Positions 1-12,188 of a stretch of DNA of 25,000 nucleotides are shown piece after piece. A program made the translations under genes and the position numbers. How positions within the stretch are numbered: position 1 is the stretch's first letter; each line of letters opens with the position of its first letter. Origin of the DNA: an uncultured Thermoplasmatales archaeon (GTDB lineage Archaea > Thermoplasmatota > E2 > UBA202 > DSCA01). The stretch is from positions 1 through 25,000 of the forward strand of contig CAZESS010000025.1 of the NCBI GenBank assembly GCA_964514975.1. Reading direction: 5' to 3'. A model generated the notes under the pieces. That model ran no database searches and was not told the DNA's origin. It was given only the letters and a program-made list of their open reading frames with translations.

Positions 1-131
1 GACAGCACATGGCCAGCGTGCTCACCCAGCCGGGGCACCCAGACCTTTTCGCGCAATCCAGCGTTGACAATCGCAAACGGAAAAAACAGAATCCACAGCA
101 GCAGCGCATAGAGCAGCAGCTTTGGTTCCAT
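1..131 (-). CDS. Small membrane protein, N-terminal part only (runs off the left edge of the window)
   Basis: Manual translation from ATG at 131: MEPKLLLYALLLWILFFPFAIVNAGLREKVWVPRLGEHAGHVL..., a hydrophobic helix then an N-x-x-x-RE motif; open to the window edge. Not in the ORF track. Confidence 0.7.
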   Translation of the reverse strand, partial: MEPKLLLYALLLWILFFPFAIVNAGLREKVWVPRLGEHAGHVL

Positions 132-179
132 GCCGCGAAAGACCGGCGGATATTTGAAACTTGCGAGAGGGGTGGGTAT

Positions 180-365
180 CTACAGCCCATTATGGGCATC
201 CGTGCGGAAGGATATCCTGTGTATCAAAATGATATGCTCGTTCCATCGGACCTCATACACCACCGTATATCGCCGATGCGCAGGCGATACAGCGATACAT
301 GTTGTCAAGGCCTTTGAGCTTTGCCACATCCGCCGTCCGGGCGGGCACCGGGATTGGCCTTGAGA
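180..365 (-). pseudogene. Degenerate RelE/ParE-family toxin remnant (5'-truncated, frameshifted)
   Basis: Stitching frames gives LKAN/PVPARTADVAKLKGLDNMYR/LRIGDI/VVYEVRWNEHIILIHRISFRTDAH, matching the RelE pattern 'KLKG..YRLRIGDYRVVY'. Needs three frame changes, including an 8-nt tandem duplication GCGATACA at 284-299. No start codon or N-terminal part seen. Confidence 0.7.
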
Positions 366-415: not shown

Positions 416-1621
416 CTATCCCCACAGCACCTCGGGCGCAATCTTCGCCACCTTTTGCCTGGCATGCTCGGGGCAGATGACCATGACACCCCAGTCCGTC
501 ACGCCTCTAAGCTGGAGCGCGTTGACCAGGGGCGTATAGTCGCTCAACGGCGCAATACTGCTATCGTTGATGATGGGGATGTCCATCTGTTTGAGGCGTG
601 GCTCGCTGAGCAAAACGTCGCGGTTGGGCACGTCGACGATGACATACCCCCTGTCAAGATTAGCTCTGTCCGCGATGTGTTTTTCTGCCATGCCGGCATC
701 GAGGTCGGCGAGATGGCGGCGCTGCCCGGCGTCCATGCCTGACAGGTCGATACGGTATGCGCTTTTGAACAAGCGTCGATACTTGATGCGGCGGACGATG
801 TCGTGCTGGAAGTCGCCCTGCTGGCGGAGATGCTGGAGGAGCTCGCCGTCGGTGAGCGGCGAGAAGTCGAGCGGCATCGCGTGTTCGACGGCGCGGAGGA
901 GCATGAGCTCGGCGATGCGCACCGTCTTGTGCAGGTAGACCGAGGAGTACATGAGCGACCGGGCGACCAACATGCTTTCCAGGGCGCTGATGCCTTTTTT
1001 GGTGACCATGACGTGGCCGTCGTGCAGCGCCAGCGTCTGCATGATGCGGTCGAAGTCGATGACGCCGTATGCGACGCCCGTGTAATGTGCATCGCGGCGC
1101 AGGTAGTCTATCTGGTCTGCGTCGATGGAACCGTGGATGATGTCGGAAAGATGGCCGCGCTGGCCGGACAGGATGGCGACGATGTCATCGGGGTCGATGT
1201 CGTGGCGTCGGAGGAGCGCCGGCAATGGCTCCATCCCGGTGTCCTTGAGCGTTCGGGTGCCGGCGATGAGTTCACGGGTGAGCTCGACGTGGTCCTTGCC
1301 CGTTGCCTGGTGCAGCAGCCGTTCGAGCGTGTGGCTGAACGGCCCGTGTCCGATGTCGTGGAGCAGGGCCGCGATGCCGACCATGCGCTGCTCTCTGCTG
1401 TCGAGGCCGAGCATTGTGGCCATCCGCCGGGCGACATGGCAGGTGCCCAGCGAGTGCTCCAGCCTTGTATGGTTTGCCCCTGGGTAGACGAGGTAGGTGA
1501 GGCCGAGCTGCCGGATGCCGTGGAGGCGCTGGAGCTCCGGCCGGTGGAGCAGCTCGAGGAAGAGGTCAGCGACGGGGATGTTGCCGTAGACCGAGTCGCG
1601 GATGATTTTTTCCTCGGTCAT
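416..1621 (-). CDS. HD-domain phosphohydrolase (SAMHD1/YwfO-like putative dNTP triphosphohydrolase)
   Basis: Motifs IRDSVYG, QRLHGIRQLG, YPGANHTRLEHSLG, LLHDIGHGPFSH, DADQIDYLRRD, VYLHKT. Start placed at MTEEK (1621), which overlaps the upstream stop as ATGA. Confidence 0.9.
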   Translation of the reverse strand: MTEEKIIRDSVYGNIPVADLFLELLHRPELQRLHGIRQLGLTYLVYPGANHTRLEHSLGTCHVARRMATMLGLDSREQRMVGIAALLHDIGHGPFSHTLERLLHQATGKDHVELTRELIAGTRTLKDTGMEPLPALLRRHDIDPDDIVAILSGQRGHLSDIIHGSIDADQIDYLRRDAHYTGVAYGVIDFDRIMQTLALHDGHVMVTKKGISALESMLVARSLMYSSVYLHKTVRIAELMLLRAVEHAMPLDFSPLTDGELLQHLRQQGDFQHDIVRRIKYRRLFKSAYRIDLSGMDAGQRRHLADLDAGMAEKHIADRANLDRGYVIVDVPNRDVLLSEPRLKQMDIPIINDSSIAPLSDYTPLVNALQLRGVTDWGVMVICPEHARQKVAKIAPEVLWG

Positions 1622-4600
1622 CGACGGCGCCACACCCCCATCCGGCGCTTCCACATGACAAGGAGGCTGCCGATCGCCGCTATGAGGATGACGAACTCGA
1701 AGCCGGTTGCCTCGTCTTCTTCTTCCACCTCGATGGTCCGGGTGACGTTGGCGGTGGCGCCGTCGTTGTCCCTCACGACCAGTTTGACCTGGTAGGTGCC
1801 CGCGCTGTCGTATTTGTGGTTGAGGAGGTCGCCGTCCTGTTCGGTGGTGCCGTCGCCGTAGTGCCAGGTGGCGTTGACGATGGTGCCGTCGGGGTCGCTG
1901 CTGGTGTCCCGGAAGGAGATATAGGTGCCGGTGCTGGGGTCGTCGGGCTCATAGGTAAACGAGGCGGTGGGGGGCACGTTTGCCACGCTTATGGCACGGG
2001 AATGGCTGTTCGACCGGCCGTCGTTGTCGGTGGCGGTGAGCGTGACCGTGTAGGTGCCGTTGTCGGTGTAGCGATGCGTGGTGTTGCGGCCGTAGCTCGT
2101 GTTCCCGTCGCCATAGCTCCAGGTGTAGTTTGTGACCTCGCCATCTGGGTCGGTGGCGTTGCCGTTGAATGAGATGTTGTCCAGGTCTGATGGCTGCCCG
2201 GGAGCAATGGTGAAGTTGACGATGGGCGGCATGTTGACCACCAGGAGCGGCATGCTGTGTGTGCCCGTCGCTCCGTCATTGTCGGTGACGGTGAGCGTGA
2301 CCGTGTACAGTCCATCGTTTTTGTAGCTGTACGTGGCATCGCGACCGGTGCTGGTGTTGCCGTCGCCGAAGTCCCATTGCCATGCGGTGATGCTGCCGTC
2401 GGGGTCGCTTGCATCGTCTATGAAGGCAACGGTGTCGATGACCGTCGGCTCGCCGGGCTGGTAGCCGAAACGGGAGCGCGGCGGCACGTTGGAGACCTCT
2501 ATCGACCGGGAAATGGTGCCTGTGGCGCCGTCGTCGTCGGTGACGGTCAGGTTGACCGTGTAGATGCCGTTGTCGGGGAAGGTATGCCGGGGGTTTTGCG
2601 CGGTGCTCGTTGCACCGTCGCCGAACTCCCAGCGCCATGCGGTGATGCTGCCGTCCGGGTCGCTGCTGGTGTCGGTGAACTCGACCACGTCGACGTCGCT
2701 GGGCGATGGCGGCTTGTAGGTATAGTTGGCCCGGGGCGGTACGTTCGCGACCGTGATGTTCCGGCTGGCTGTCGCGGTGTCGTTGTCGTCGTCGCGAACC
2801 ATGAGCGTGGCCGTGTAGGTGCCGTTGTCCCGGTAGCGATGTACCGCCATGTTGCCGTAGCCGGTCGTGTTGTCCCCAAACATCCAGGTGTAGTTGACGA
2901 TGCTGCCATCCGGGTCGCTGCTACCGCTGCCGTTGAACACGACCAGGTCGGCTGTGGTAGGCTCAGCGGGGAGGACATCGATGACGGGGGATGGCGGCAT
3001 GTTGCCGACCGGCAGCGATATAGACATGGTGTCGGTTGCGCCGTCGTCGTCGGTGACGGTGAGCGTGACCGTGTAGACGCCGTTGTCCGCATAGCGATGG
3101 GTCACGTTGCGCCCGTAGCCGGTCGTGTTGTCCCCGAAGCTCCAGGTGTAGTTGACGATGCTGCCGTCCGGGTCGCTGCTACCGCTGCCGTTGAACATGA
3201 TATCGTCGACGTCCGTGGGCTCCAAAGGTATCCAGGTCATGTTCGCAGTGGGGGCGGTGTTGAAAATGGTGATGTTTTTGGTGACGCTGCCCGTTTCGTT
3301 GTCGTCGTCGGTGACGGTCAACGTGACGGTATATTCATTGTTGTCGGTGCCGTTATCGGTGTACACGTGCGTGACAGTCTCGTTAGCCGTGGTCACATTG
3401 GTGCCGTCGCCGAATGTCCAGTGTCGCTGCACGATGACGCCGTCGAGATCGATCGAGGTGTCGGTAAAGGACACCTGGGTCATCGTGAACGTGGGAGACG
3501 GAGCCATGGTGAACGAGGGAACCGGCAGCCCCGCCCGGCGAATCAGCGGATGGTTGTCCCTGTTGCCTGGGTGATTAATTTTTTCGAAGAATGGATGGAA
3601 AAAGAGAGAGCCCGCCCATCCGGTTTGATTGGTGGCATTAATGGAATACCATGCAGGACAGTCACCAGCTGCAGAGATAAATATTACGTTGCTTGCAGCC
3701 GGAGAGTTAACCTGTGCATTGAATGTTCCGCTGTAGCAGAAATCAGAGAGGAACGTTACCCGGGAGCAATTGGCGGTAATCCAGCTCAGCCATGTCTGCA
3801 TCTCCCCAGGGGATATTGATTCATTTGTTTCTAATTCAAACGCATCTTCAGTTCCATGGTCAACGAGGTAGAGCACTACATCGGTCTCATTGTCTGTCTC
3901 AGAAGCAATATTCTTGAATTGTTGTTTCAATAATTCTTTATCAATACTTGAATGGTTATAATCAATCTCTGGAGGTTCGTTTGGCCCACCAATCTGTGTG
4001 GGCGGACCTAACAGGTCATTGTGATCACCATAAATACTTACATTGGTCTGATTGTTATGCCACAGCAGAAAAGTGATGTTCTCGTCTGTGTATCCTTTTG
4101 CTTTCAGCGTATAGTACGCCTGCAATCCCTGTGCCGGAAAACCGTCAACATTATAGACAGGTGGAGGAGGAGAATAAAAGTCATTGGTAGATACACAAAT
4201 CAACGCCGACTTATTATTGGATGAAGACAGTTTATAAGTGTCGCTATCCCCGATATTATCGATAATGCGAGGATGTTGTGAAGATACAATCGGTTGCATA
4301 GAGGCATACTGGAATATCTCCTGTAACGTATCTGCATACTTTGTACCAGGGATATCATATGGCACATCCCCGACACCATCATGGTTATTGTCCCTCCCAG
4401 TATAATCACTCCAATAGTTGCCGACAGTGCTATTATCCCATCTATTATATCTATTATCCCACACCTGATTTTCGTTGTCGATGAAATCGTTGAAATAAAA
4501 CAGGTTGCCGGATGAGTCGTCCACGTAGGCACCGTACATGCTGTCGACACATGAGACATGGTGAATGGTGTTGTTCGATGCGTCGGAAAGCTCGAGGGCG

Positions 4601-7089
4601 TACACCGAGTTGTTGTGCACCTCGACATGCGCAAACAGGCCCCCGTGGACATCGTCAAGCATGACGCCCTTGTTGTTGCCGTACACGCTGCAGTTCTCCA
4701 TGACAGGATGGCGGGCATGCTGCCATACGGCGCCCGCATAGGCATTGTAACCGGCCTCGCTGCCATCAACAGATACGTTATCGCCCGTCACCATGAGCCC
4801 GGTGTAGCTGTCGGCAAACACGCAGTCATAGATGCTGACGTTGTCCCCGGATACATACACGGCGGGGTCGTTCCAGCAGCCCTGCACCGTAAACTGGTGG
4901 AGCACCGCCCCGTTTCCGGTCACGGTGAACCCGGAGGCATCGCCGCCCTGAACAATCACCTCGTCGGGAGACTGCCCGGTCACGGTGAGCCCGCGGTCGA
5001 GCGCGACCTGCTCCTGGTAGGTGCCCGTATACACATAGCAGCCGCCATGGTCACGGAGCGCGTCGAGCGCCATCTGAATCGAACGATAATGGTCATGCTC
5101 CCATCCGGGGATAGATGGCGTGAAATCAGGGCTAACCCAGGCAAAAAAGGGCGGGTCGTCAACCGGATAACGGAGCGGATATAGATCGGTTGCCTCGGCT
5201 CCGCCCGGTACCACGTATGCCGTGTCGACGAAGCCATCCCGGCCCGGTCTGCTCTGATTGGCGCCCTTGAAACCGTCGGCGCCCTGATGAGCGCTCCAGT
5301 AGTTGCCCAGCGCCTCGTCGTAGGCGCCGCCCCACTGGTTGTCGACGCAGGCGTCGTAGGCGGTGTTGCCGATGAAATTGTTGTGCCAGAAACGGTTGTC
5401 GGTCGAGTTCTGCACGAGATAGGCGCCATAGTTGCCGTTGTCCGCGATGTGGCAGCTGGCGATGGTATTTCCAGCGGAGACATGGCTCAGCTCAAGGCCG
5501 AAAAAGGTGTTGTCGTAGACATGGCAGCTCTGGATGGTGGACGCCACGGTGCCGAACAGAAAGATGCCCTTCTGGTTGTCGTGGACGGAGAGACCATGGA
5601 GCTGGCATTCGTTGGCGTTGACAAGATACACGCCGAACACCGCCTGGGTTGCGCTGCAGTTGGCGATGGTGACCCATCGGGCGTTTTGTACCTTGATGGC
5701 CGCGTTGCTCGCCGTCACGGTAAAACCGCTGACATGTGCGTTGTTCGCGGTCACCAGGATGCCCTCGGCGGTTCCCCAGACATGGGCGCTGCCGGCGCCG
5801 ACGAGCGAGATGTTTTTATCAACGATGCAGGGCTGATAGCTGCCGTTGTAGACGTAGCAGCCGCCGCCGGGGACAACGGCGTCGATGGCCGCCTGGATCG
5901 TGTCGAAGTGGTCGTGGTTCCAGCCCGGTTTTGCCGGGTTGTAGTCGCTGTCGACCCAGACCCGAGCCGGCGGTGTCTGGATGCGGGCTATGAGCGGATG
6001 GCTGTCCTGGCTGCTGTTGCCCGGCAGGATGTATGGCCTGTCGCCGATACCGTCATGGTCGGTGTCGCTGCCGGTGTAGGTGTCCCAGTAGTTGCCGATG
6101 CTGCTGTTCCATCTGTTGCCGCCGTGGTCGACGGCATTGATACCGTTGGCGACGAAGTTGTTGTGGTGGATGAGGTTGCCATGCGATGTTGCCTCGGCGT
6201 AGATGCCCCGGTCGTTGCCTTGGATCTGGCAGCTGGCAATGGTGTTATTGGAGGATGCATTGAGATAGATGCCGTACCCGAAGTCGGTGCTGACACCGGC
6301 GTTGCCTGTAACGGTGCAGTTCCGGATGCTGTTGCCCGTGGCGCCGGCGTCGAGGATGAGGCCGACCTTGCCGTCGGTGAAGGCGCTGTCTGTCACGTGT
6401 GTGGTCGTGGTGTCGACAAGGCGGAGACCGCAGAACACGTCGGAAGCGGTGACGTTGTCGATGGAGATGTTTGCGCAGCCGTCGACCACGATGGACTTGT
6501 TTTCTATCGAGGTAAATGACGTGTCACGGAGGCTGCAGCGCGCTGTCTCCATGAAGCGGAGTCCCCAGCCCGCCGACGTTATGGTGCAGCCTGATATGGA
6601 GGCGTTGCTGCCCCGTATGTCGACGGCCCAGCTGTCGCTTTTCGGGTTGTCCTGGGTTACCCTGCAGTTTCTGACCGTCAGAAAATCGTATTCGGTGTAC
6701 AACGCCGCATCGTATCCGCCGCGTATGGTGAGGTTCTGGATGGTGACCCCGCTGGCGATGACCTTGACCGCATAGGTCGCGTTGTCGGTGATGGTGACAC
6801 TGCCGGTGGCCTCCCCTGAAATGGTTATGTTGTCCTTGTAAATGTCGACGGAGTCATAGGTGCCCTCGAAGACGGCGATGGTGTCACCGTGTTCTGCATC
6901 GTCGATGCCCTCTTGGAGCGTGTTCCATTTGTGGTTTGGCGGATCGTCGACAAAGTCGTCGTCGACGAAAATTATTTTTCCCGGGGAGGATGTTGCCGCC
7001 GTGTCCTCAGACAGCAGAAAAACGGCTGCTCCCCCTATCATTATTATAATTACAAATAGCAGCAACGCGATCCCGACCCCTCGCTTCAT
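1618..7089 (-). CDS. Large cell-surface protein: signal/TM, 3 NosD/CASH beta-helix modules, inserted clan CD protease domain, 7 PKD domains, PGF-CTERM-like anchor
   Basis: N-terminal hydrophobic stretch; three modules starting with variants of V-x-x-D-[FY]...T-I-Q-x-x-I-D and ending GNYW..Y/H; seven PKD units with W.FGDG...H.Y.DNG.YTVTLTVTDDDG; C-terminal TGFEFVILIAAIGSLLVMWKRR. Confidence 0.9.
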   Translation of the reverse strand: MKRGVGIALLLFVIIIMIGGAAVFLLSEDTAATSSPGKIIFVDDDFVDDPPNHKWNTLQEGIDDAEHGDTIAVFEGTYDSVDIYKDNITISGEATGSVTITDNATYAVKVIASGVTIQNLTIRGGYDAALYTEYDFLTVRNCRVTQDNPKSDSWAVDIRGSNASISGCTITSAGWGLRFMETARCSLRDTSFTSIENKSIVVDGCANISIDNVTASDVFCGLRLVDTTTTHVTDSAFTDGKVGLILDAGATGNSIRNCTVTGNAGVSTDFGYGIYLNASSNNTIASCQIQGNDRGIYAEATSHGNLIHHNNFVANGINAVDHGGNRWNSSIGNYWDTYTGSDTDHDGIGDRPYILPGNSSQDSHPLIARIQTPPARVWVDSDYNPAKPGWNHDHFDTIQAAIDAVVPGGGCYVYNGSYQPCIVDKNISLVGAGSAHVWGTAEGILVTANNAHVSGFTVTASNAAIKVQNARWVTIANCSATQAVFGVYLVNANECQLHGLSVHDNQKGIFLFGTVASTIQSCHVYDNTFFGLELSHVSAGNTIASCHIADNGNYGAYLVQNSTDNRFWHNNFIGNTAYDACVDNQWGGAYDEALGNYWSAHQGADGFKGANQSRPGRDGFVDTAYVVPGGAEATDLYPLRYPVDDPPFFAWVSPDFTPSIPGWEHDHYRSIQMALDALRDHGGCYVYTGTYQEQVALDRGLTVTGQSPDEVIVQGGDASGFTVTGNGAVLHQFTVQGCWNDPAVYVSGDNVSIYDCVFADSYTGLMVTGDNVSVDGSEAGYNAYAGAVWQHARHPVMENCSVYGNNKGVMLDDVHGGLFAHVEVHNNSVYALELSDASNNTIHHVSCVDSMYGAYVDDSSGNLFYFNDFIDNENQVWDNRYNRWDNSTVGNYWSDYTGRDNNHDGVGDVPYDIPGTKYADTLQEIFQYASMQPIVSSQHPRIIDNIGDSDTYKLSSSNNKSALICVSTNDFYSPPPPVYNVDGFPAQGLQAYYTLKAKGYTDENITFLLWHNNQTNVSIYGDHNDLLGPPTQIGGPNEPPEIDYNHSSIDKELLKQQFKNIASETDNETDVVLYLVDHGTEDAFELETNESISPGEMQTWLSWITANCSRVTFLSDFCYSGTFNAQVNSPAASNVIFISAAGDCPAWYSINATNQTGWAGSLFFHPFFEKINHPGNRDNHPLIRRAGLPVPSFTMAPSPTFTMTQVSFTDTSIDLDGVIVQRHWTFGDGTNVTTANETVTHVYTDNGTDNNEYTVTLTVTDDDNETGSVTKNITIFNTAPTANMTWIPLEPTDVDDIMFNGSGSSDPDGSIVNYTWSFGDNTTGYGRNVTHRYADNGVYTVTLTVTDDDGATDTMSISLPVGNMPPSPVIDVLPAEPTTADLVVFNGSGSSDPDGSIVNYTWMFGDNTTGYGNMAVHRYRDNGTYTATLMVRDDDNDTATASRNITVANVPPRANYTYKPPSPSDVDVVEFTDTSSDPDGSITAWRWEFGDGATSTAQNPRHTFPDNGIYTVNLTVTDDDGATGTISRSIEVSNVPPRSRFGYQPGEPTVIDTVAFIDDASDPDGSITAWQWDFGDGNTSTGRDATYSYKNDGLYTVTLTVTDNDGATGTHSMPLLVVNMPPIVNFTIAPGQPSDLDNISFNGNATDPDGEVTNYTWSYGDGNTSYGRNTTHRYTDNGTYTVTLTATDNDGRSNSHSRAISVANVPPTASFTYEPDDPSTGTYISFRDTSSDPDGTIVNATWHYGDGTTEQDGDLLNHKYDSAGTYQVKLVVRDNDGATANVTRTIEVEEEDEATGFEFVILIAAIGSLLVMWKRRMGVWRRR
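1730..3528 (-). repeat. Seven tandem PKD-domain coding repeats (about 255-260 nt period)
   Basis: Repeated S(S)DPDG.I...W.FGD motif. Blocks 2883-2939 and 3141-3197 are identical except one base, 258 nt apart. Outer bounds approximate. Confidence 0.85.
3565..4344 (-). other. AT-rich in-frame insert encoding a peptidase C13/caspase-like (clan CD) domain within the surface protein
   Basis: VVLYLVDHG (His codon 3856-3858) and VTFLSDFCYSG (Cys codon 3736-3738) give the clan CD His-Gly...Cys dyad pattern. Hand-counted GC is 14/60 at 3901-3960 versus 38/60 at 3001-3060. Confidence 0.75.
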
Positions 7090-7120: not shown

Positions 7121-7200
7121 ACACTTAAACTTTTTTATTTTTTCTGCCATCTGTTCTGGGGGTTCACCGTAACCATCGATACGACAAAGAAAAGTTTATA
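7121..7200. promoter_or_regulatory. Divergent archaeal BRE/TATA promoter pair
   Basis: Minus strand AAAAAAG-TTTAAG (TATA about 7124-7129) ahead of ATG 7089; plus strand GAAAAG-TTTATA (7195-7200) 27 nt before ATG 7228, consistent with a leaderless transcript. Confidence 0.6.
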
Positions 7201-7227: not shown

Positions 7228-8223
7228 ATGGACGATGCACAACGGGAGATGGTCGCTGCCGGTGACCTGGAAAAATATGCATACTGCCCGCTGTCATGGT
7301 GGCTGAGCGAACAGGAAAACGTGGTCGACTCCCATGCGGGCGTCCGCCGGCATGACACCGTGGGCGAGGAGCTGGAGGAGATACGGCGGGACGAGAAAAA
7401 ACGGAAACAGTATACCAACATCATCATCGGGCTCATCGGCGCCGCGTCGCTCCTCGCCGTCGTCGGCCTCACCTTTGCCACCGACATCGGCGCACGGGAG
7501 CACAGCTACCTTTTCGTCGCGCTCGCCCTGCTCTGGCTGCTCTATTCTATATATTTTCTGTACCGGGCGGAAAAAATAGCCATCGACGTTTTGCGGCTCC
7601 GCTACGAAAAAACCATCCTGTTTTCGTCGATGGGCGCAATGATAATCGCGCTCGTCGTCATCCTGTCGGCGCTGCCGGCGAACCGCGACGTCGCCGTCTT
7701 CCTGGAAATCCTGGCGCTGGTGTGGATCGTCGCCGCCAACCTGTATTTTTATCGCTCGCTGAACCTGTCGGAGGGCATGCTGATGCGGAAGATGGAGTAT
7801 GTGTCGCCGCAGGAGGACATCGCCTACGTCGGCATGCAGCAGGAGAGCCCATTGCTGGAGTCCGGGCAGCTGGGCATCCGCGGCCGCCCCGACTACATTA
7901 TCAGGCGCGACAGCAGCTACATCCCCGTCGAGAAAAAGACGGGGCGGACGCCCAAGGGGCCCCTGTTTTCGCATATCGTCCAGCTCATCGCCTACTGCAT
8001 GCTCGTCGGGGAATCGTTTGGCCCGGTGCCCTATGGCATCATCGAATACGAGGAAAAAAAATACAGCATCGACAACAGCGACGAACTGCAGGAGACAGTC
8101 CTGGAGCTCCGCGACAAGCTGCTCCGCGACCGCGAGCGGGACGAGGCGCATCGGAACCACGAGCGCAAGGGCAAATGCATTTATTGCTCCAGGCGTGACG
8201 TCTGCCATGAGCGGCTTGCATAG
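7228..8223 (+). CDS. cas4: Solo Cas4-family (PD-(D/E)XK, 4Fe-4S) nuclease with four inserted transmembrane helices
   Basis: DLEKYAYCP (C20), G-x-x-x-H, GRPDYII, PVEKKT, QLIAY and C317-x2-C320-x5-C326; four hydrophobic segments between about aa 63 and 176. No other cas genes or array in the window. Confidence 0.8.
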   Translation: MDDAQREMVAAGDLEKYAYCPLSWWLSEQENVVDSHAGVRRHDTVGEELEEIRRDEKKRKQYTNIIIGLIGAASLLAVVGLTFATDIGAREHSYLFVALALLWLLYSIYFLYRAEKIAIDVLRLRYEKTILFSSMGAMIIALVVILSALPANRDVAVFLEILALVWIVAANLYFYRSLNLSEGMLMRKMEYVSPQEDIAYVGMQQESPLLESGQLGIRGRPDYIIRRDSSYIPVEKKTGRTPKGPLFSHIVQLIAYCMLVGESFGPVPYGIIEYEEKKYSIDNSDELQETVLELRDKLLRDRERDEAHRNHERKGKCIYCSRRDVCHERLA

Positions 8224-8506: not shown

Positions 8507-10762
8507 ATGAATAAGACAAAACTTGATTTGACCGACAATGCGAGGACTGTTTTAGAGAAGCGCTACCTGCAGAAAAACGCCGATGGCGAGGTTATTGAAA
8601 CGGAGGAGGAAATGTTCCGTCGGGTGGCCCGTGACATCGCCGCTGCCGATGAGCAGTATGGCGACGATGTCGAGGCGACCACTGACGCGTTTTATGACCT
8701 GATGGCACGTCTTGATTTTCTGCCGAACTCGCCGACGCTGATGAACGCGGGGACCGAGATACAGCAGCTGTCGGCCTGCTTCGTGCTGCCCGTCGAGGAC
8801 TCGATGGAGGGTATCTTCAATGCCATCAAGAACACCGCCCTTATCCACCAGTCGGGCGGCGGCACCGGGTTTTCGTTTTCGCGTATCCGCCCCGCCGGTG
8901 ACATCGTGCATTCGACGGGCGGCGTCGCCTCGGGCCCGATTTCGTTTATGAAGGTCTTCAACGCCTCGACCGACGTCATCAAGCAGGGCGGCCGTCGTCG
9001 GGGGGCCAACATGGGCATCCTCCGCGTCGACCATCCCGACATCATGGAGTTCATCACGGCCAAGCAGGACCAGCAGGAGCTCACCAATTTCAACATCTCG
9101 GTGGCAGCCACGGGCCGGTTCATGGACGCGGTGGAAGCGAGGGAGCGATATCCATTGGTGAACCCCCGGACCGGGGAGACCGAGGGAGAGCTCGACGCGG
9201 AGCGGGTGTTCGACAAGATCGTCGAGATGAGCTGGGAGAACGGGGAACCGGGTATCATCTTCCTTGACAGGATAAACGAGGGCAATCCGACGCCGCATGT
9301 CGGCGAGATAGAGTCGACGAATCCCTGCGGCGAGCAGCCATTGCTTCCCTACGAGAGCTGCAACCTGGGCTCCATCAACCTCGCACACATGGTCACAGAT
9401 GGCGACATCGACTACGACCGGCTTGGAGAGGTCGTGGACACGGCGGTGCATTTCCTCGACAACGTGGTCGACCGGAACCAGTATCCCCTGGAGGAGATCA
9501 GGGAGCAGACGCTGGCCAACCGCAAGGTCGGGCTCGGGGTGATGGGATTCGCCGACATGCTCATCCAGCTCGGCGTCCCCTACAACAGCGACGAGGCGCT
9601 CGACCTCGCCCGCGAGATCATGTCGTATGTGCAGGAACGGGCGCGGGAAAAATCGGTGGAGCTTGGCAGGAAACGGGGCTCGTTCCCCAACTTCGAGGGC
9701 AGCATCTACGACGGCGACCATGAGGCGATGCGCAACGCCACGGTGACCACTATCGCGCCGACGGGCAGCATCTCCATCATCGCGGGCTGCTCCTCGGGCA
9801 TCGAACCCCTGTTCGCGGTCTCGTTCGTCAGGAACATCCTCGACGAGGAGGACCGGCTCGTCGAGGTCAACCCGTATTTCAAAACGGTGGCCGGGGAGCG
9901 CGGGTTTTACAGCCAGGATGTCATGGAAAAAATCGCGGAGAACCGGGGCTCGGTGCAGGGCGTCGAGGAGGTACCCGGGGACGTGCAGCGGCTGTTTGCG
10001 ACGGCGCTCGACATCACCCCCAAGGAACACATCCGGATGCAGGCCGCCTTCCAGGAATACACGGACAACGCCACCTCGAAGACCGTCAACTTCCGGGAGG
10101 AAGCGTCGCAGGAGGACGTCAGAGAGGTCTACCAGCTGGCCTACGACCTGGGCTGCAAGGGCGTCACCGTCTACCGATATGGCAGCCGGGAGGGACAGGT
10201 GCTCTCGACCGGGGAGGAAAAAAAGGAGGACAAAAAAGACGAGCAGCGGCCCCGGCCCCGACCTGTCGCCGTGCGGGGCGTCACCCGGAAAATCGGCACC
10301 GGCTGCGGCAACCTGTATGTGACGATGAACGAGGACAGCTCCGGCCTGTTCGAGGTGTTCGCCCGGCTGGGCAAGGCCGGCGGATGCGCCGACGCGCAGC
10401 TCGAAGCCATCGGCCGCCTGGTGTCCATCGCCCTGCGCTCGGGCGTCGAACTCAAGTCGATCATCCGCCAGCTCAAGGGCATCCGCTGCCCGTCACCGTT
10501 GCTCGCCCGCGGCGGCCCCATGCTCTCCTGCCCGGACGCCGTCGCCAAGGCGCTGGAGGCCTACATGAAGGGAGAGATGCCGCCTGAGACGGCGAAGCTG
10601 GACATGTTCCAGGAGCACGAGCGCATGGAGCATGAAACGGAGGAGGGCTCTGTGCAGGCACCCATCGGCCCGGTCGGTGTCTGCCCGGACTGCGGCAACC
10701 CCATGGTCTTCGAGGAGGGCTGCAAGGTCTGCAAAAACTGCGGCTACTCGACCTGCGGCTAG
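8507..10762 (+). CDS. nrdJ: Class II (adenosylcobalamin-dependent) ribonucleotide reductase with C-terminal TSCPD and Zn-ribbon domains
   Basis: VLEKRYL, FLPNSPTLMNAG, LSACFV, GGGTGF, QGGRRRGANMG, TNPCGEQPL, CNLGSINL, TIAPTGSIS, KGVTVYR; tail LSCPDA and CPDCG...EGCKVCKNCGYSTC. No N-terminal ATP cone and no intein seen. Confidence 0.95.
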   Translation: MNKTKLDLTDNARTVLEKRYLQKNADGEVIETEEEMFRRVARDIAAADEQYGDDVEATTDAFYDLMARLDFLPNSPTLMNAGTEIQQLSACFVLPVEDSMEGIFNAIKNTALIHQSGGGTGFSFSRIRPAGDIVHSTGGVASGPISFMKVFNASTDVIKQGGRRRGANMGILRVDHPDIMEFITAKQDQQELTNFNISVAATGRFMDAVEARERYPLVNPRTGETEGELDAERVFDKIVEMSWENGEPGIIFLDRINEGNPTPHVGEIESTNPCGEQPLLPYESCNLGSINLAHMVTDGDIDYDRLGEVVDTAVHFLDNVVDRNQYPLEEIREQTLANRKVGLGVMGFADMLIQLGVPYNSDEALDLAREIMSYVQERAREKSVELGRKRGSFPNFEGSIYDGDHEAMRNATVTTIAPTGSISIIAGCSSGIEPLFAVSFVRNILDEEDRLVEVNPYFKTVAGERGFYSQDVMEKIAENRGSVQGVEEVPGDVQRLFATALDITPKEHIRMQAAFQEYTDNATSKTVNFREEASQEDVREVYQLAYDLGCKGVTVYRYGSREGQVLSTGEEKKEDKKDEQRPRPRPVAVRGVTRKIGTGCGNLYVTMNEDSSGLFEVFARLGKAGGCADAQLEAIGRLVSIALRSGVELKSIIRQLKGIRCPSPLLARGGPMLSCPDAVAKALEAYMKGEMPPETAKLDMFQEHERMEHETEEGSVQAPIGPVGVCPDCGNPMVFEEGCKVCKNCGYSTCG

Positions 10763-11220
10763 ATAACCCCGGCGGAGATGTCCTCGATTTCGCGCTCGCA
10801 GTAGAAACATTTGATACGGAGCGGGTCCCGCGATTTGACGATAAACCGGGGCTGAATCGGCTCGTTGCTCGCGTTGGAGATACAGCTCGGGTTGGCGCAT
10901 TCAACGATGCCGACGATGTCGTCGGGGACCGACACGCGGTGCTTGTCCCGTACCTCGTAGTCACGGATGATGTTGATGGTGGCATTGGGCGCGATGAGCG
11001 CTATCTTGTCGACCTCGTGGGCCTTGAGCTCACGGTTCTCGATTTTTACGATGTCCTTTTTTCCCTGGCCGCCCTCGACGTTCATGACCACGCTGATGAT
11101 GGAGCCGCCGTGCGTGTCGCCCGGGATGCGGAGAATTTTGAGAACCTTGAGCGCGCAGCCGGGCGTGATGTGGTCGATGACGGTGCCGTTTGTGATGGGC
11201 TGGACTTTGAGCTCCTTCAT
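10759..11220 (-). CDS. pyrI: Aspartate carbamoyltransferase regulatory chain
   Basis: From MKELKVQPITNGTVIDHI (ATG 11220, ATGA overlap with pyrB); KDIVKIE, IAPNATINII, CANPSCISN...CFYCE zinc site. Confidence 0.95.
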   Translation of the reverse strand: MKELKVQPITNGTVIDHITPGCALKVLKILRIPGDTHGGSIISVVMNVEGGQGKKDIVKIENRELKAHEVDKIALIAPNATINIIRDYEVRDKHRVSVPDDIVGIVECANPSCISNASNEPIQPRFIVKSRDPLRIKCFYCEREIEDISAGVI

Positions 11221-12146
11221 TCGACCACCCCCGCAACGAGCGAGATGAGCGCCATCCTGACCGGGACACCGTTGAACGCCTGCCTGAAGTAGGCAGCGGC
11301 GGGTGTTTCGTCGACATCCGGGGAGATCTCGTAGACCCGGGGGAGCGGATGCATCACGATGGCGTCGCTTTGAGCTCTCTCCAGCAAATCGGTGTCGATG
11401 GTGTAGATACCCGCCACTTTTTTGTATTCCTCGGGGTCGGGGAAGCGCTCCTTCTGGATACGGGTCACATACATGACGTCGACGTCCTCGATGGCGCCGT
11501 TGAGCTCCGTCTCGAACGAGATGCTGGCGCCGAGCTCCTCGCATTCCTCGACCACCTCACGGGACATCTGGAGCTGCTCCGGCGCGATAAAGGTCAGGTC
11601 GGCCTTGAACAATGCCAGTGCATAGGCCAGCGAGTGCACCGTCCGCCCGTATTTGAGATCGCCGATGAGCGCAACCCTGTTGTCGCCGATGTCCCCGCGC
11701 TCTTTCTGGATGGTGAAAAGGTCGAGGAGACACTGTGTGGGATGACGGCCGGCGCCGTCGCCGCCGTTGATGACCGGCACCTCGGCGAACTCGGCGGCCA
11801 TCCGCGCGGAGCCCTCCTGGGGATGCCGCATGACGATGAGGTCGCAGTAGCTTTCAACGGTGCGGATGGTATCCGCCAGCGTTTCCCCTTTTTGCAGCGA
11901 GGTGCCACCCGGCCGTGCGAAGCCGATGACCCGGCCATCCAGCCGTTCCATCGCCGCCGCAAACGACAGCCGCGTCCGCGTCGACGGCTCGAAGAACAGC
12001 GACGCCATGATTTTTCCCGTCATCAGGGTGCTCGTCTCACTGCCCCGGGCCGCCGGCACCATGTCCTCTGCGACGGACAAAATGTGCAGGATTTCCTCCC
12101 GTGTCAAATCCTTGATGGAAACGATGTCTCGACCCGTGAAATGCAT
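11217..12146 (-). CDS. pyrB: Aspartate carbamoyltransferase catalytic chain
   Basis: FFEPSTRTRLSF, KGETLADT, HPTQ, GDLKYGRTVHSL, TRIQKERF, MHPLPR. Start placed at MHFTGRD (12146); ATG 12170 is an alternative. Confidence 0.96.
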   Translation of the reverse strand: MHFTGRDIVSIKDLTREEILHILSVAEDMVPAARGSETSTLMTGKIMASLFFEPSTRTRLSFAAAMERLDGRVIGFARPGGTSLQKGETLADTIRTVESYCDLIVMRHPQEGSARMAAEFAEVPVINGGDGAGRHPTQCLLDLFTIQKERGDIGDNRVALIGDLKYGRTVHSLAYALALFKADLTFIAPEQLQMSREVVEECEELGASISFETELNGAIEDVDVMYVTRIQKERFPDPEEYKKVAGIYTIDTDLLERAQSDAIVMHPLPRVYEISPDVDETPAAAYFRQAFNGVPVRMALISLVAGVVE

Positions 12147-12188
12147 TACAGGTATAATGCCAGACGGCATAAATAAACATTGGTGCAG

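Follow-up and report, generated by a model that had tools for sequence, protein, structure and literature searches.

Enzymes of the Cas4 family are known from CRISPR adaptation and from repair, in both cases as soluble nucleases. Canonical Cas4 (PF01930/TIGR00372; structures 7MI4/7MI5, 8D3L, 4IC1 of SSO0001, and 4R5Q of Pcal_0546) is a compact, soluble, contiguous protein of ~200 amino acids (aa), with a PD-(D/E)xK core, a QxxxY motif, and one N-terminal plus three C-terminal (CxxCx5C) cysteines for an iron-sulfur (Fe-S) cluster. Here, a Cas4-like gene was analyzed that lies at positions 7228..8223 of a 25,000-nucleotide (nt) stretch of DNA from an uncultured Thermoplasmatales archaeon (positions 1 to 25,000 of contig CAZESS010000025.1, assembly GCA_964514975.1), referred to below as the window. 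Its product has the core, the QxxxY motif, and all four cluster cysteines in common with canonical Cas4, and a model of it superposes on Cas4 over the whole soluble part (Z scores of 18.9, 16.6, 11.9, and 9.3). However, it differs in a 114-aa insert of four predicted transmembrane (TM) helices after the helix that bears the first cysteine (the Cys helix), in an HRNH motif before CxxCx5C, and in the absence of any linkage to cas1, cas2, or CRISPR.

In the available text of two sources (PMC13621843, PMC5704561), a Cas4-family gene located away from cas genes is called Solo-Cas4, and the window's gene is one by that definition. The Solo-Cas4 of Methanosarcina mazei also lies outside cas loci and has four conserved cysteines, and its biological role is given as unknown; it was expressed as a SUMO fusion, purified tag-free, and found as a complex of ~318 kDa, and its abstract names no membrane anchor (PMC12501428). 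The window's protein, in contrast, is a predicted integral membrane protein. The main text of the 2017 phylogenomic survey of Cas4 (Hudaiberdiev et al., PMC5704561) contains "transmembrane" 0 times and "membrane" once, in an unrelated context, while the accessible part of PMC13621843 concerns a different Cas4-like lineage in which DUF2779 is fused to a DEDD nuclease. AddB, AdnA-AdnB, Dna2, and Exo5 have in common with the window's protein the PD-(D/E)xK core and a cluster that pins an N-terminal segment to C-terminal cysteines (Z, 11 to 12.6), but they are soluble, often helicase-linked repair enzymes, and no matched entry has a membrane insert in the staple loop. A full-text literature search, with most subscription journals outside its reach, returned no description of a membrane Cas4. 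The kind of nuclease is known, and the architecture is apparently new; an earlier interpretation of the same DNA made from its letters alone (the sequence-only reading) had named no characterized precedent either, and we found no published characterization.

A parallel of principle is offered by SNIPE, an anti-phage nuclease of Escherichia coli with one N-terminal TM helix, DUF4041, and GIY-YIG. According to the accessible text of its preprint (bioRxiv 10.1101/2025.11.03.685801), SNIPE cleaves phage DNA during injection, is toxic once its TM domain is removed, and is a defense system across many bacterial phyla. The principle of anchoring a nuclease at the cytoplasmic side of the membrane, where its location limits the DNA that is cut, extends to the window's protein by prediction only. 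The two proteins are unrelated: the one described here has a Cas4 fold, belongs to a family with an internal insert of 2, 4, or 8 helices, and is the product of a gene that behaves like a core gene of an archaeal phylum, and neither DUF4041 nor GIY-YIG was found in it by a Pfam scan at E<=1.

We propose that the gene encodes a membrane-tethered, cytoplasm-facing, CRISPR-independent Fe-S DNA nuclease, a reading to which we assign a probability of roughly 0.75. The identity of the protein is its firmest part. Sequence and structure model make it very probable that the product is a polytopic membrane protein with a single Cas4-family PD-(D/E)xK domain, an [Fe-S] cluster site, and two duplicated TM hairpins after the Cys helix; that the gene is vertically inherited, single-copy in Thermoplasmatota, and independent of CRISPR adaptation belongs to the same strongly held claim.

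Sequence, fold, and predicted topology

The gene encodes 331 aa on the + strand, with an ATG at 7228 and the stop codon included in the interval, as given by the list of open reading frames (ORFs) and its translation; all features of the protein given below are on the same strand. The TATA-like sequence TTTATA at 7195..7200 (+), 28-33 nt 5' of the ATG and preceded by an A-rich stretch, reads as a putative archaeal promoter, and a leaderless or short-leader mRNA is possible. The N-terminal piece (residues 1-62; 7228..7413), predicted to be cytoplasmic, contains C20 (nt 7285-7287) in an invariant YCPLSWWL helix, followed by an invariant G38, a near-invariant H42, and a K/R-rich stalk. Residues 63-176 (7414..7755) form four TM helices that make up two homologous helical hairpins, as indicated by hydropathy, AlphaFold2, and hhalign. 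The remaining part (residues 177-331; 7756..8220) is the nuclease core, again predicted to be cytoplasmic and recognized by Pfam, NCBIfam, and PADLOC Cas4 models and by its invariant columns. It holds D222 (nt 7891-7893) within GRPD, E235 (nt 7930-7932) and K237 (nt 7936-7938) in the context E235-K236-K237, Q252 (nt 7981-7983) and Y256 (nt 7993-7995) of the QxxxY motif, the family-specific HRNH (residues 308-311), and the cluster cysteines C317 (nt 8176-8178), C320 (nt 8185-8187), and C326 (nt 8203-8205). A fifth Cys is located at position 257.

In the Pfam search, PF12705 (PDDEXK_1) matched residues 204-327 (E 1.2e-10; 42.2 bits against a cutoff of 22) and PF01930 (Cas_Cas4) matched residues 218-327 (E 4.1e-6; 27.4 bits against a cutoff of 22.7). 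The NCBIfam model TIGR00372 (cas4) aligned residues 166-327 with its positions 17-179 of 180 (E 1.4e-16), the match being confined to these positions because the insert separates the N-terminal Cys helix from the rest. The top-scoring PADLOC models were all Cas4, and comparison of the family profile with solved Cas4 proteins matched 8d3l (E 2e-6), 4ic1 (E 1.1e-5), and 4r5q (E 9e-5). Residues 1-62 taken alone gave a sequence match to 8d3l that was not significant by itself, and because phmmer returned 0 matches of these residues in the PDB, we infer rather than observe that H42 corresponds to the His that binds metal in motif I of Cas4.

A Kyte-Doolittle scan found four hydrophobic stretches, which place TM1 at about residues 63-84 (nt 7414-7479), TM2 at 94-113 (nt 7507-7566), TM3 at 129-149 (nt 7612-7674), and TM4 at 156-176 (nt 7693-7755). 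An AlphaFold2 model built from a 32-row alignment showed long helices at 36-83, 92-116, 120-148, and 153-188, with an alpha/beta core after them. The sequence-only reading had counted about 115 aa with four hydrophobic helices between C20 and the nuclease core, in good agreement with the 114 aa of residues 63-176. Over the 32 rows, the mean number of lysine plus arginine residues (K+R) was 10.9 for the TM1 pre-flank, the TM2-TM3 loop, and the TM4 post-flank and 1.25 for the TM1-TM2 and TM3-TM4 loops, with the inside value exceeding the outside value in 32/32 rows. By the positive-inside rule, this excess predicts that both soluble halves are cytoplasmic, in line with the earlier expectation that an even number of helices would leave them on one side. 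An Fe-S enzyme needs a cytoplasmic location, and a secreted nuclease was ruled out on the basis of the positive-inside rule together with the Fe-S site.

The model had a mean predicted local distance difference test score (pLDDT) of 79.7 and a predicted template modeling score (pTM) of 0.75, with a pLDDT of 92 at residues 11-20 and of 88-98 over residues 190-300. The best PDB matches found by Foldseek were Cas4 proteins. VIA-align superposed the model on 7mi5_A (Cas4-Cas1) with Z 18.9 and a root mean square deviation of 2.2 A over 156 residues, the model range being 2..326. Other Cas4 proteins followed (7mi4_A, Z 17.9; 8d3l_J, Z 16.6; 4ic1_D, Z 11.9), the weakest of the four Cas4 values quoted at the outset being 9.3, and AdnA/AdnB, MGME1, Exo5, and Dna2 gave Z 11-12.6. 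With structural alignments that start from residue 2, the N-terminal Cys helix takes in the model the position required for the cluster, its canonical place beside the C-terminal cysteines. The suggestion that the cluster could still form in spite of the insert agrees with this placement in the monomer model. The TM part alone matched only generic four-helix bundles among known folds (Z <=9.8, under a bar of ~13 for helical bundles), and a protein atlas search with residues 40-192 gave a best score of 0.80, which is chance level.

Very probably, the N-terminal piece, with C20, G38, and H42, re-associates in the cytoplasm with the C-terminal core into a normal Cas4 fold, which two stalk helices (about residues 36-62 and 177-188) hang beneath the membrane. 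In the mechanism that we propose, the enzyme would cut DNA with Mn2+ or Mg2+, like soluble Cas4 enzymes, and the tether would restrict it to DNA that reaches the inner face of the membrane, most likely to DNA ends, and would spare the bulk chromosome. An even helix number (2, 4, 8, or 1+1 in a split form) would be a hard constraint, since segments from either side of the insert come together in the cluster site and probably also in the catalytic site; and because the N-terminal piece, with the first Cys and probably H42, must rejoin the core, two-gene forms would be split exactly between two helices. A cluster site, and probably an active site, assembled across 2, 4, or 8 membrane helices or from two one-helix proteins would be an unusual localization for an enzyme, and even-only helix numbers would be a clean evolutionary signature of a nuclease built around a membrane insert.

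Conservation of the family and the number of its helices

A search of 5.8 billion clustered proteins (E<=1e-3) returned 680 matches, the best 120 of which were all 305-357 aa long, covered 97-100% of the query, and, where named, came from Thermoplasmata, Thermoplasmatales, or "Methanobacteriota" metagenome-assembled genomes (MAGs). Orthologues from close relatives were 84-92% identical to the window's protein. Among 1.84 billion cluster representatives, the family profile matched 2588 at E<=1e-3, of which 1130 reached 1e-10 and 234 reached 1e-30. With the architecture conserved across hundreds of clusters, an assembly or fusion artifact was ruled out. Judged from its sequence, the gene is a real one under purifying selection: the ratio of nonsynonymous to synonymous substitution rates (dN/dS) against three orthologues (84-88% identity) was 0.09-0.15 for the whole gene, with values of 0.05-0.16 for the TM part and 0.06-0.10 for the nuclease part. 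When one genome per species was scanned with a pattern, 232 of 239 matches were confirmed as relatives and 80 were kept; 74 of these 80 loci had an ORF match, and 72 of them were complete. Titles of the 80 included DHVE2/Aciduliprofundum, Ca. Haladaptatiplasma, and Ca. Saliniplasma, and, for the MAGs, Thermoplasmata or Thermoplasmatota, Methanomassiliicoccales, and one "Aenigmatarchaeota".

Conservation was measured in an alignment of 32 members that are 36-92% identical to the window's protein. Invariant in 32/32 are E15, C20, P21, L22, W24, W25, L26, and G38 in the N-terminal part; G80, W103, W166, and A170 in the TM part; and Y200, G219, P221, D222, P233, K237, P245, H249, Q252, Y256, G270, Y274, H308, R309, N310, H311, K316, C317, C320, C326, and E328 in the core. 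H42, E127, E160, and E235 occur in 90% or more of the rows, E127 and E160 in 30/32. Among the complete orthologues in species genomes, GxPD, P[VI][EV]xK, and QxxxY were present in 72/72 and HRNH in 70/72. The sequence-only reading had called the catalytic motifs and the four cluster cysteines intact, which the invariance of C20, C317, C320, and C326 confirms, and its description of a membrane-embedded Cas4-family nuclease with the insert inside the Fe-S "staple" is supported as well. Each hairpin has one invariant Trp halfway along its second helix (W103 and W166 in the window's protein; W110, W196, W266, and W366 in 8-TM relatives), and the start of TM4 carries the conserved Glu E160 (30/32). 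This degree of conservation hints at something beyond the need of a passive anchor.

The conserved hairpin tryptophans and E160, together with a cluster module expected beside the membrane, would suit a catalytically silent Fe-S membrane protein that senses redox or membrane state and keeps only the Cas4 fold. However, across the family every catalytic residue is invariant or close to it, a pattern not expected of an inactivated enzyme; we regard such a sensor as very improbable.

To count helices, the 150 best cluster representatives were sampled, and 70 of them carry CxxCx5C as well as the N-terminal Cys motif; the remaining 80, which comprise 54 C-terminal halves and 26 fragments without one of the motifs, were left out of the count. 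At a hydropathy threshold of 1.5, the 70 sequences had, between the two motifs, 0 helices in 2 cases, 1 in 1, 2 in 22, 4 in 31, 7 in 1, and 8 in 13. Raising the threshold to 1.7 gave 0 in 2, 1 in 3, 2 in 20, 3 in 1, 4 in 30, 7 in 2, and 8 in 12, and lowering it to 1.3 gave 0 in 2, 2 in 23, 4 in 31, 7 in 1, 8 in 12, and 9 in 1. Relatives carry 2, 4, or 8 helices, and an odd number almost never; in the species genomes, four helices were counted in 65/72 complete orthologues.

The two hairpins of the window's protein (residues 55-120 and 118-185) matched each other in hhalign over 62 columns with a probability of 98.9% and an E value of 1.2e-17. A column-reversed control gave 2.7e-3, and eight column shuffles gave 2e-3 to 0.33. 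This match lies far beyond the controls and indicates that the four-helix insert is, as far as profile comparison can tell, a tandem duplication of a two-helix hairpin. The 8-TM forms re-match the TM segments of the 4-TM profile, and an AlphaFold2 model of one 8-TM relative showed eight long helices, although this model was poor (pLDDT 60.1, pTM 0.44). In a quick tree of the nuclease domain (135 rows, 138 columns), two groups were parted by a branch with a Shimodaira-Hasegawa-like approximate likelihood ratio (SH-aLRT) value of 95. The first (56 rows) contains mostly split forms, some 2-TM forms, and both soluble proteins, and the second (79 rows) contains interleaved 2-, 4-, and 8-TM forms. 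This pattern suggests that hairpin number changed repeatedly, in a tree too weak for the changes to be counted.

The 54 C-terminal halves are ~175 aa long, with a Met start in 50 and one N-terminal helix in 46. A split pair in a one-contig genome of the phylum consists of adjoining ORFs of 89 aa and 172 aa, the former with the Cys helix, the G..H motif, and one TM helix and the latter with one TM helix, the nuclease, and CxxCx5C. Relatives of this pair include a Cuniculiplasma MAG. A scan of metagenomes with a narrow profile of the C-terminal half gave 599 pattern matches, of which 550 were confirmed and 80 loci kept. The C-half ORF was present in 78/80 kept loci, and an 80-95-aa N-half ORF lay upstream on the same strand in 59/78; in 9/78 the contig end was too close, and in 10/78 no N-half was found. 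One split representative is labeled "Anaerolineae bacterium", and the nearest soluble cluster is labeled Chloroflexota. In another one-contig genome, of the same class, the N- and C-terminal halves of a 2-TM form occupy different frames and are separated by a TAG (L003, about 1220-2020, equal to L030:6041-6837), and the sole standard start codon of the second frame would shorten its TM helix; this may be a true split, but equally a frameshift or an error of sequencing.

Distribution in Thermoplasmatota and relation to CRISPR

The window's own assembly (1.96 Mb, 98.9% complete) contains one copy of the family. In this genome, PF01867 (Cas1) had no match, and neither cas nor known defense genes were found in the 25-kb window; the protein is a solo Cas4, of the CRISPR-independent kind whose existence the sequence-only reading had mentioned. 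To follow the family through the phylum, 401 sampled Thermoplasmatota genomes, 262 of them of high quality, were searched at E<=1e-5. The family was present in 283/401 genomes and in 177/262 of those of high quality. An end-to-end match to the 4-TM profile occurred once each in 50 genomes, and most other matching genomes had N- and C-terminal pieces around a different insert; forms checked by example were a 4-TM protein with a long loop and an unsplit 2-TM protein. By hand count, about 15/283 matches were weaker than 1e-30.

Cas1 was found in 97/401 of the same genomes. The groups f30 (family 58/58, Cas1 0/58), f5 (17/19 and 0/19), and f27 (10/10 and 0/10) have the family and no Cas1, as does the window's own genus (4/4 and 0/4), and in f9 the family is present in 2/48 genomes and Cas1 in 22/48. 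The family does not follow Cas1 and is unlinked to CRISPR. Relatives carry the public labels Cas4, "CRISPR-associated protein Cas4", and "Dna2/Cas4 domain-containing", and these labels, with the Cas4 fold and motifs, would be accounted for by an ordinary adaptation Cas4 that is membrane-bound by chance. This explanation was rejected because of the missing Cas1: the window's genome has no Cas1 match and the window itself no cas gene, the family is present in 283 genomes against 97 for Cas1, and f30, f5, and f27 lack it altogether. We consider it hardly credible. Removal of the "CRISPR-associated" annotation would correct a label that inflates counts of CRISPR components in these genomes.

Many of the Cas1 matches in Thermoplasmatota lie in frames of 550-580 aa, ~2x the length of plain Cas1 (e.g., G188:C1:1564903-1565748 and G071:C106:688-1533). 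These long frames may be Cas4-Cas1 fusions, in which case a soluble CRISPR Cas4 would exist beside the membrane form. Among viral contigs, 28 pattern matches were obtained, and no relative was confirmed.

Gene neighborhoods and the DNA possibly met at the membrane

In the window, the gene is surrounded by genes for an HD-domain protein, a beta-helix/PKD surface protein, a class II ribonucleotide reductase, pyrI, pyrB, and TYW3 and further by ThiD-ThiN, HypF, CitF, aspartyl-tRNA synthetase (AspRS), a PfkB kinase, and a C25 peptidase, which is a housekeeping context. A wider sample of 101 archaeal loci was scanned, of which 95 had a family ORF (L065, L070, L081, L089, L095, and L102 did not; L012 and L041 are the same contig, as are L013 and L056). 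Among the 95, GlmS adjoins the gene in 17 loci and a TPD-motif protein (PF14811) in 14, and a 143-aa protein of unknown kind occurs in 17 and IF-2B in 12.

Within four ORFs of the gene, 15 loci of 4-TM relatives encode a protein of ~900 aa that is of secreted type and has two PLDc_2 domains, two lamin-tail (LTD) domains, and a PKD domain. In 12 of them (L078, L079, L083, L088, L096, L098, L101, L104, L105, L106, L109, and L110), it lies directly upstream and co-directional, with a gap of <=25 nt or an overlap (e.g., L101:3266-5992 beside L101:5992-6990), and in the other 3 (L014, L064, and L071) it is 1-2 kb away. This protein and the membrane Cas4 may be an outside/inside pair of phosphodiesterases. 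In addition, three distinct genomes of the window's order (5 loci, two of them duplicates) have T2SSE/T2SSF genes of the type IV pilus kind and prepilin-peptidase genes flanking the gene. Both associations would fit cytoplasmic end-processing during DNA uptake, in which the enzyme would trim or degrade DNA that arrives by natural transformation or nucleotide scavenging. However, they are lineage-specific and absent from the window, the PLD-family protein is only a putative nuclease, no channel protein is linked, and the gene is kept also where the PLD and pilus neighbors are missing. Uptake processing as the specific role therefore appears rather improbable to us.

Several other neighbors hint at DNA metabolism. 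The split pair of a Thermoplasmatales-type genome (L029) is surrounded by RadB-like, FEN1-like, and SMC genes; FtsZ is near the gene in one locus (L025); and in the 78 metagenomic loci of the split form, NAD kinase lies downstream in 18, with RecN-like genes in 6 and the single-stranded DNA-binding protein (SSB) in 7. Among the window's closest relatives, the ribonucleotide reductase adjoins the gene in 9 loci, one of which is the window. With the core-gene distribution, purifying selection, and housekeeping contexts, these neighbors would suit a role in repair or chromosome maintenance, acting on DNA ends or intermediates at the membrane, for example during segregation or division. All of these syntenies are weak and lineage-bound, though, and the metagenomic loci may be close kin; nadK-recN is a common gene pair in any case, and the need for a membrane tether would go unexplained. 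A housekeeping repair enzyme is, in our estimate, an unlikely answer and the chief rival to the substrate favored below.

For the membrane-tethered nuclease proposed here, we tentatively favor DNA that crosses the membrane, whether taken up or invading, as the DNA that it meets, defense and uptake being taken together. This preference is based on the analogy with SNIPE, and the PLD/LTD and pilus-type neighbors of some lineages point the same way; it is held at less than even odds. A narrower version, to which we lean even less, is that of an entry-point nuclease: the hairpins and stalk helices would keep the active site immediately beneath the membrane, and DNA ends emerging there, be they viral, conjugative, or taken up, would be threaded and cut, with the chromosome out of reach. 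If this were true, a whole archaeal phylum would keep as a core gene a constitutive, sequence-independent means of handling incoming DNA, a split two-gene form of the same nuclease would exist in metagenomic loci (with one representative labeled Anaerolineae), and a route of DNA translocation not yet found in these archaea would be indicated. More generally, if DNA is handled at the membrane, the family offers a testable route into archaeal DNA uptake, virus entry, and membrane-linked repair, all of which are poorly known.

Several results weigh against the reading developed here, some against its architecture and others against its proposed substrate. The TIGR00372 score of 60.8 bits is below the equivalog cutoff of 65, and the pLDDT is only 66, 64, and 41 over residues 310-331, the region of the three C-terminal cysteines. 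The TM helices rest on hydropathy windows and AlphaFold2, and the topology rests on the positive-inside rule, which is a rule of thumb. Odd helix counts were obtained in 2/70 relatives at the threshold of 1.5 and in 6/70 at 1.7, shifting with the threshold, and 3 helices were counted in 7/72 orthologues in species genomes; we take odd counts as missed helices, and, among six sequences viewed by eye, the two that were read closely (P0182 and P0224) look like this. In the nuclease tree, 76/132 inner branches are unresolved. Among the 95 loci there is no universal operon partner, the neighbors being lineage-specific, and no DNA channel or uptake machinery linked to the gene was found. For the action on DNA entering the cell that the sequence-only reading had proposed, neither an uptake channel nor a conserved partner came to light, and a near-universal, single-copy gene in stable housekeeping neighborhoods fits a core function better than a mobile defense gene, for which a patchy, island-borne pattern is usual. 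Strong purifying selection with no diversified region points in the same direction. The same facts bear on a subset of the incoming-DNA reading, in which the protein is a constitutive defense nuclease that cuts viral or plasmid DNA on entry and tells foreign DNA from the chromosome by its place at the membrane. A tether combined with a cytoplasmic nuclease shares the logic described for SNIPE in the accessible text of bioRxiv 10.1101/2025.11.03.685801, and the predicted topology supports such a geometry; however, PADLOC matched only generic Cas4 and DruK nuclease models, and the absence of relatives on viral contigs carries little weight either way. We judge a dedicated defense role unlikely.

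A protein of ~215 aa is encoded just upstream of the split form in 27/78 metagenomic loci (e.g., L162:5053-5706). Its profile identifies it as a member of the Translin/TRAX family (AfTRAX 3zc1, E 1e-35; NEQ131 5jr9, E 3e-17), and the nearest NCBIfam models, named "haloacid dehalogenase superfamily protein", scored below their cutoffs. The window's genome has a TRAX-like gene elsewhere (G000:C9:56246-56872; L192), and such genes are present in 223/401 Thermoplasmatota genomes (f30, 0/58; f5, 0/19; f27, 0/10; f9, 41/48). A TRAX-like gene was beside the membrane Cas4 in 0/101 archaeal loci. With no adjacency and a different phyletic pattern, TRAX was rejected as a general partner, which also counts among the points against the proposed reading.

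The window has some further features of its own. Rfam and tRNA scans of its 25 kb found nothing, and in particular there is no Rfam element in the spacer between the Cas4 gene and the ribonucleotide reductase gene. The latter (8507-10762, +), of class II type with a barrel and a TSCPD domain, follows the Cas4 gene on the same strand at a distance of 283 nt. The gene for the predicted surface protein of 1823 aa, at 1618-7089 (-), is divergent from the Cas4 gene, and its product has four stretches of NosD/right-handed beta-helix, seven PKD domains, and a hydrophobic C-terminal tail; similar giant proteins occur near the gene in 7 loci and adjoin it in 3. The longest ORF at the pyrI locus, 10759-11544 (-), encodes 261 aa and overlaps pyrB (11217-12170), and its PyrI domains cover only residues 112-254, so that the true pyrI start is probably an internal Met.

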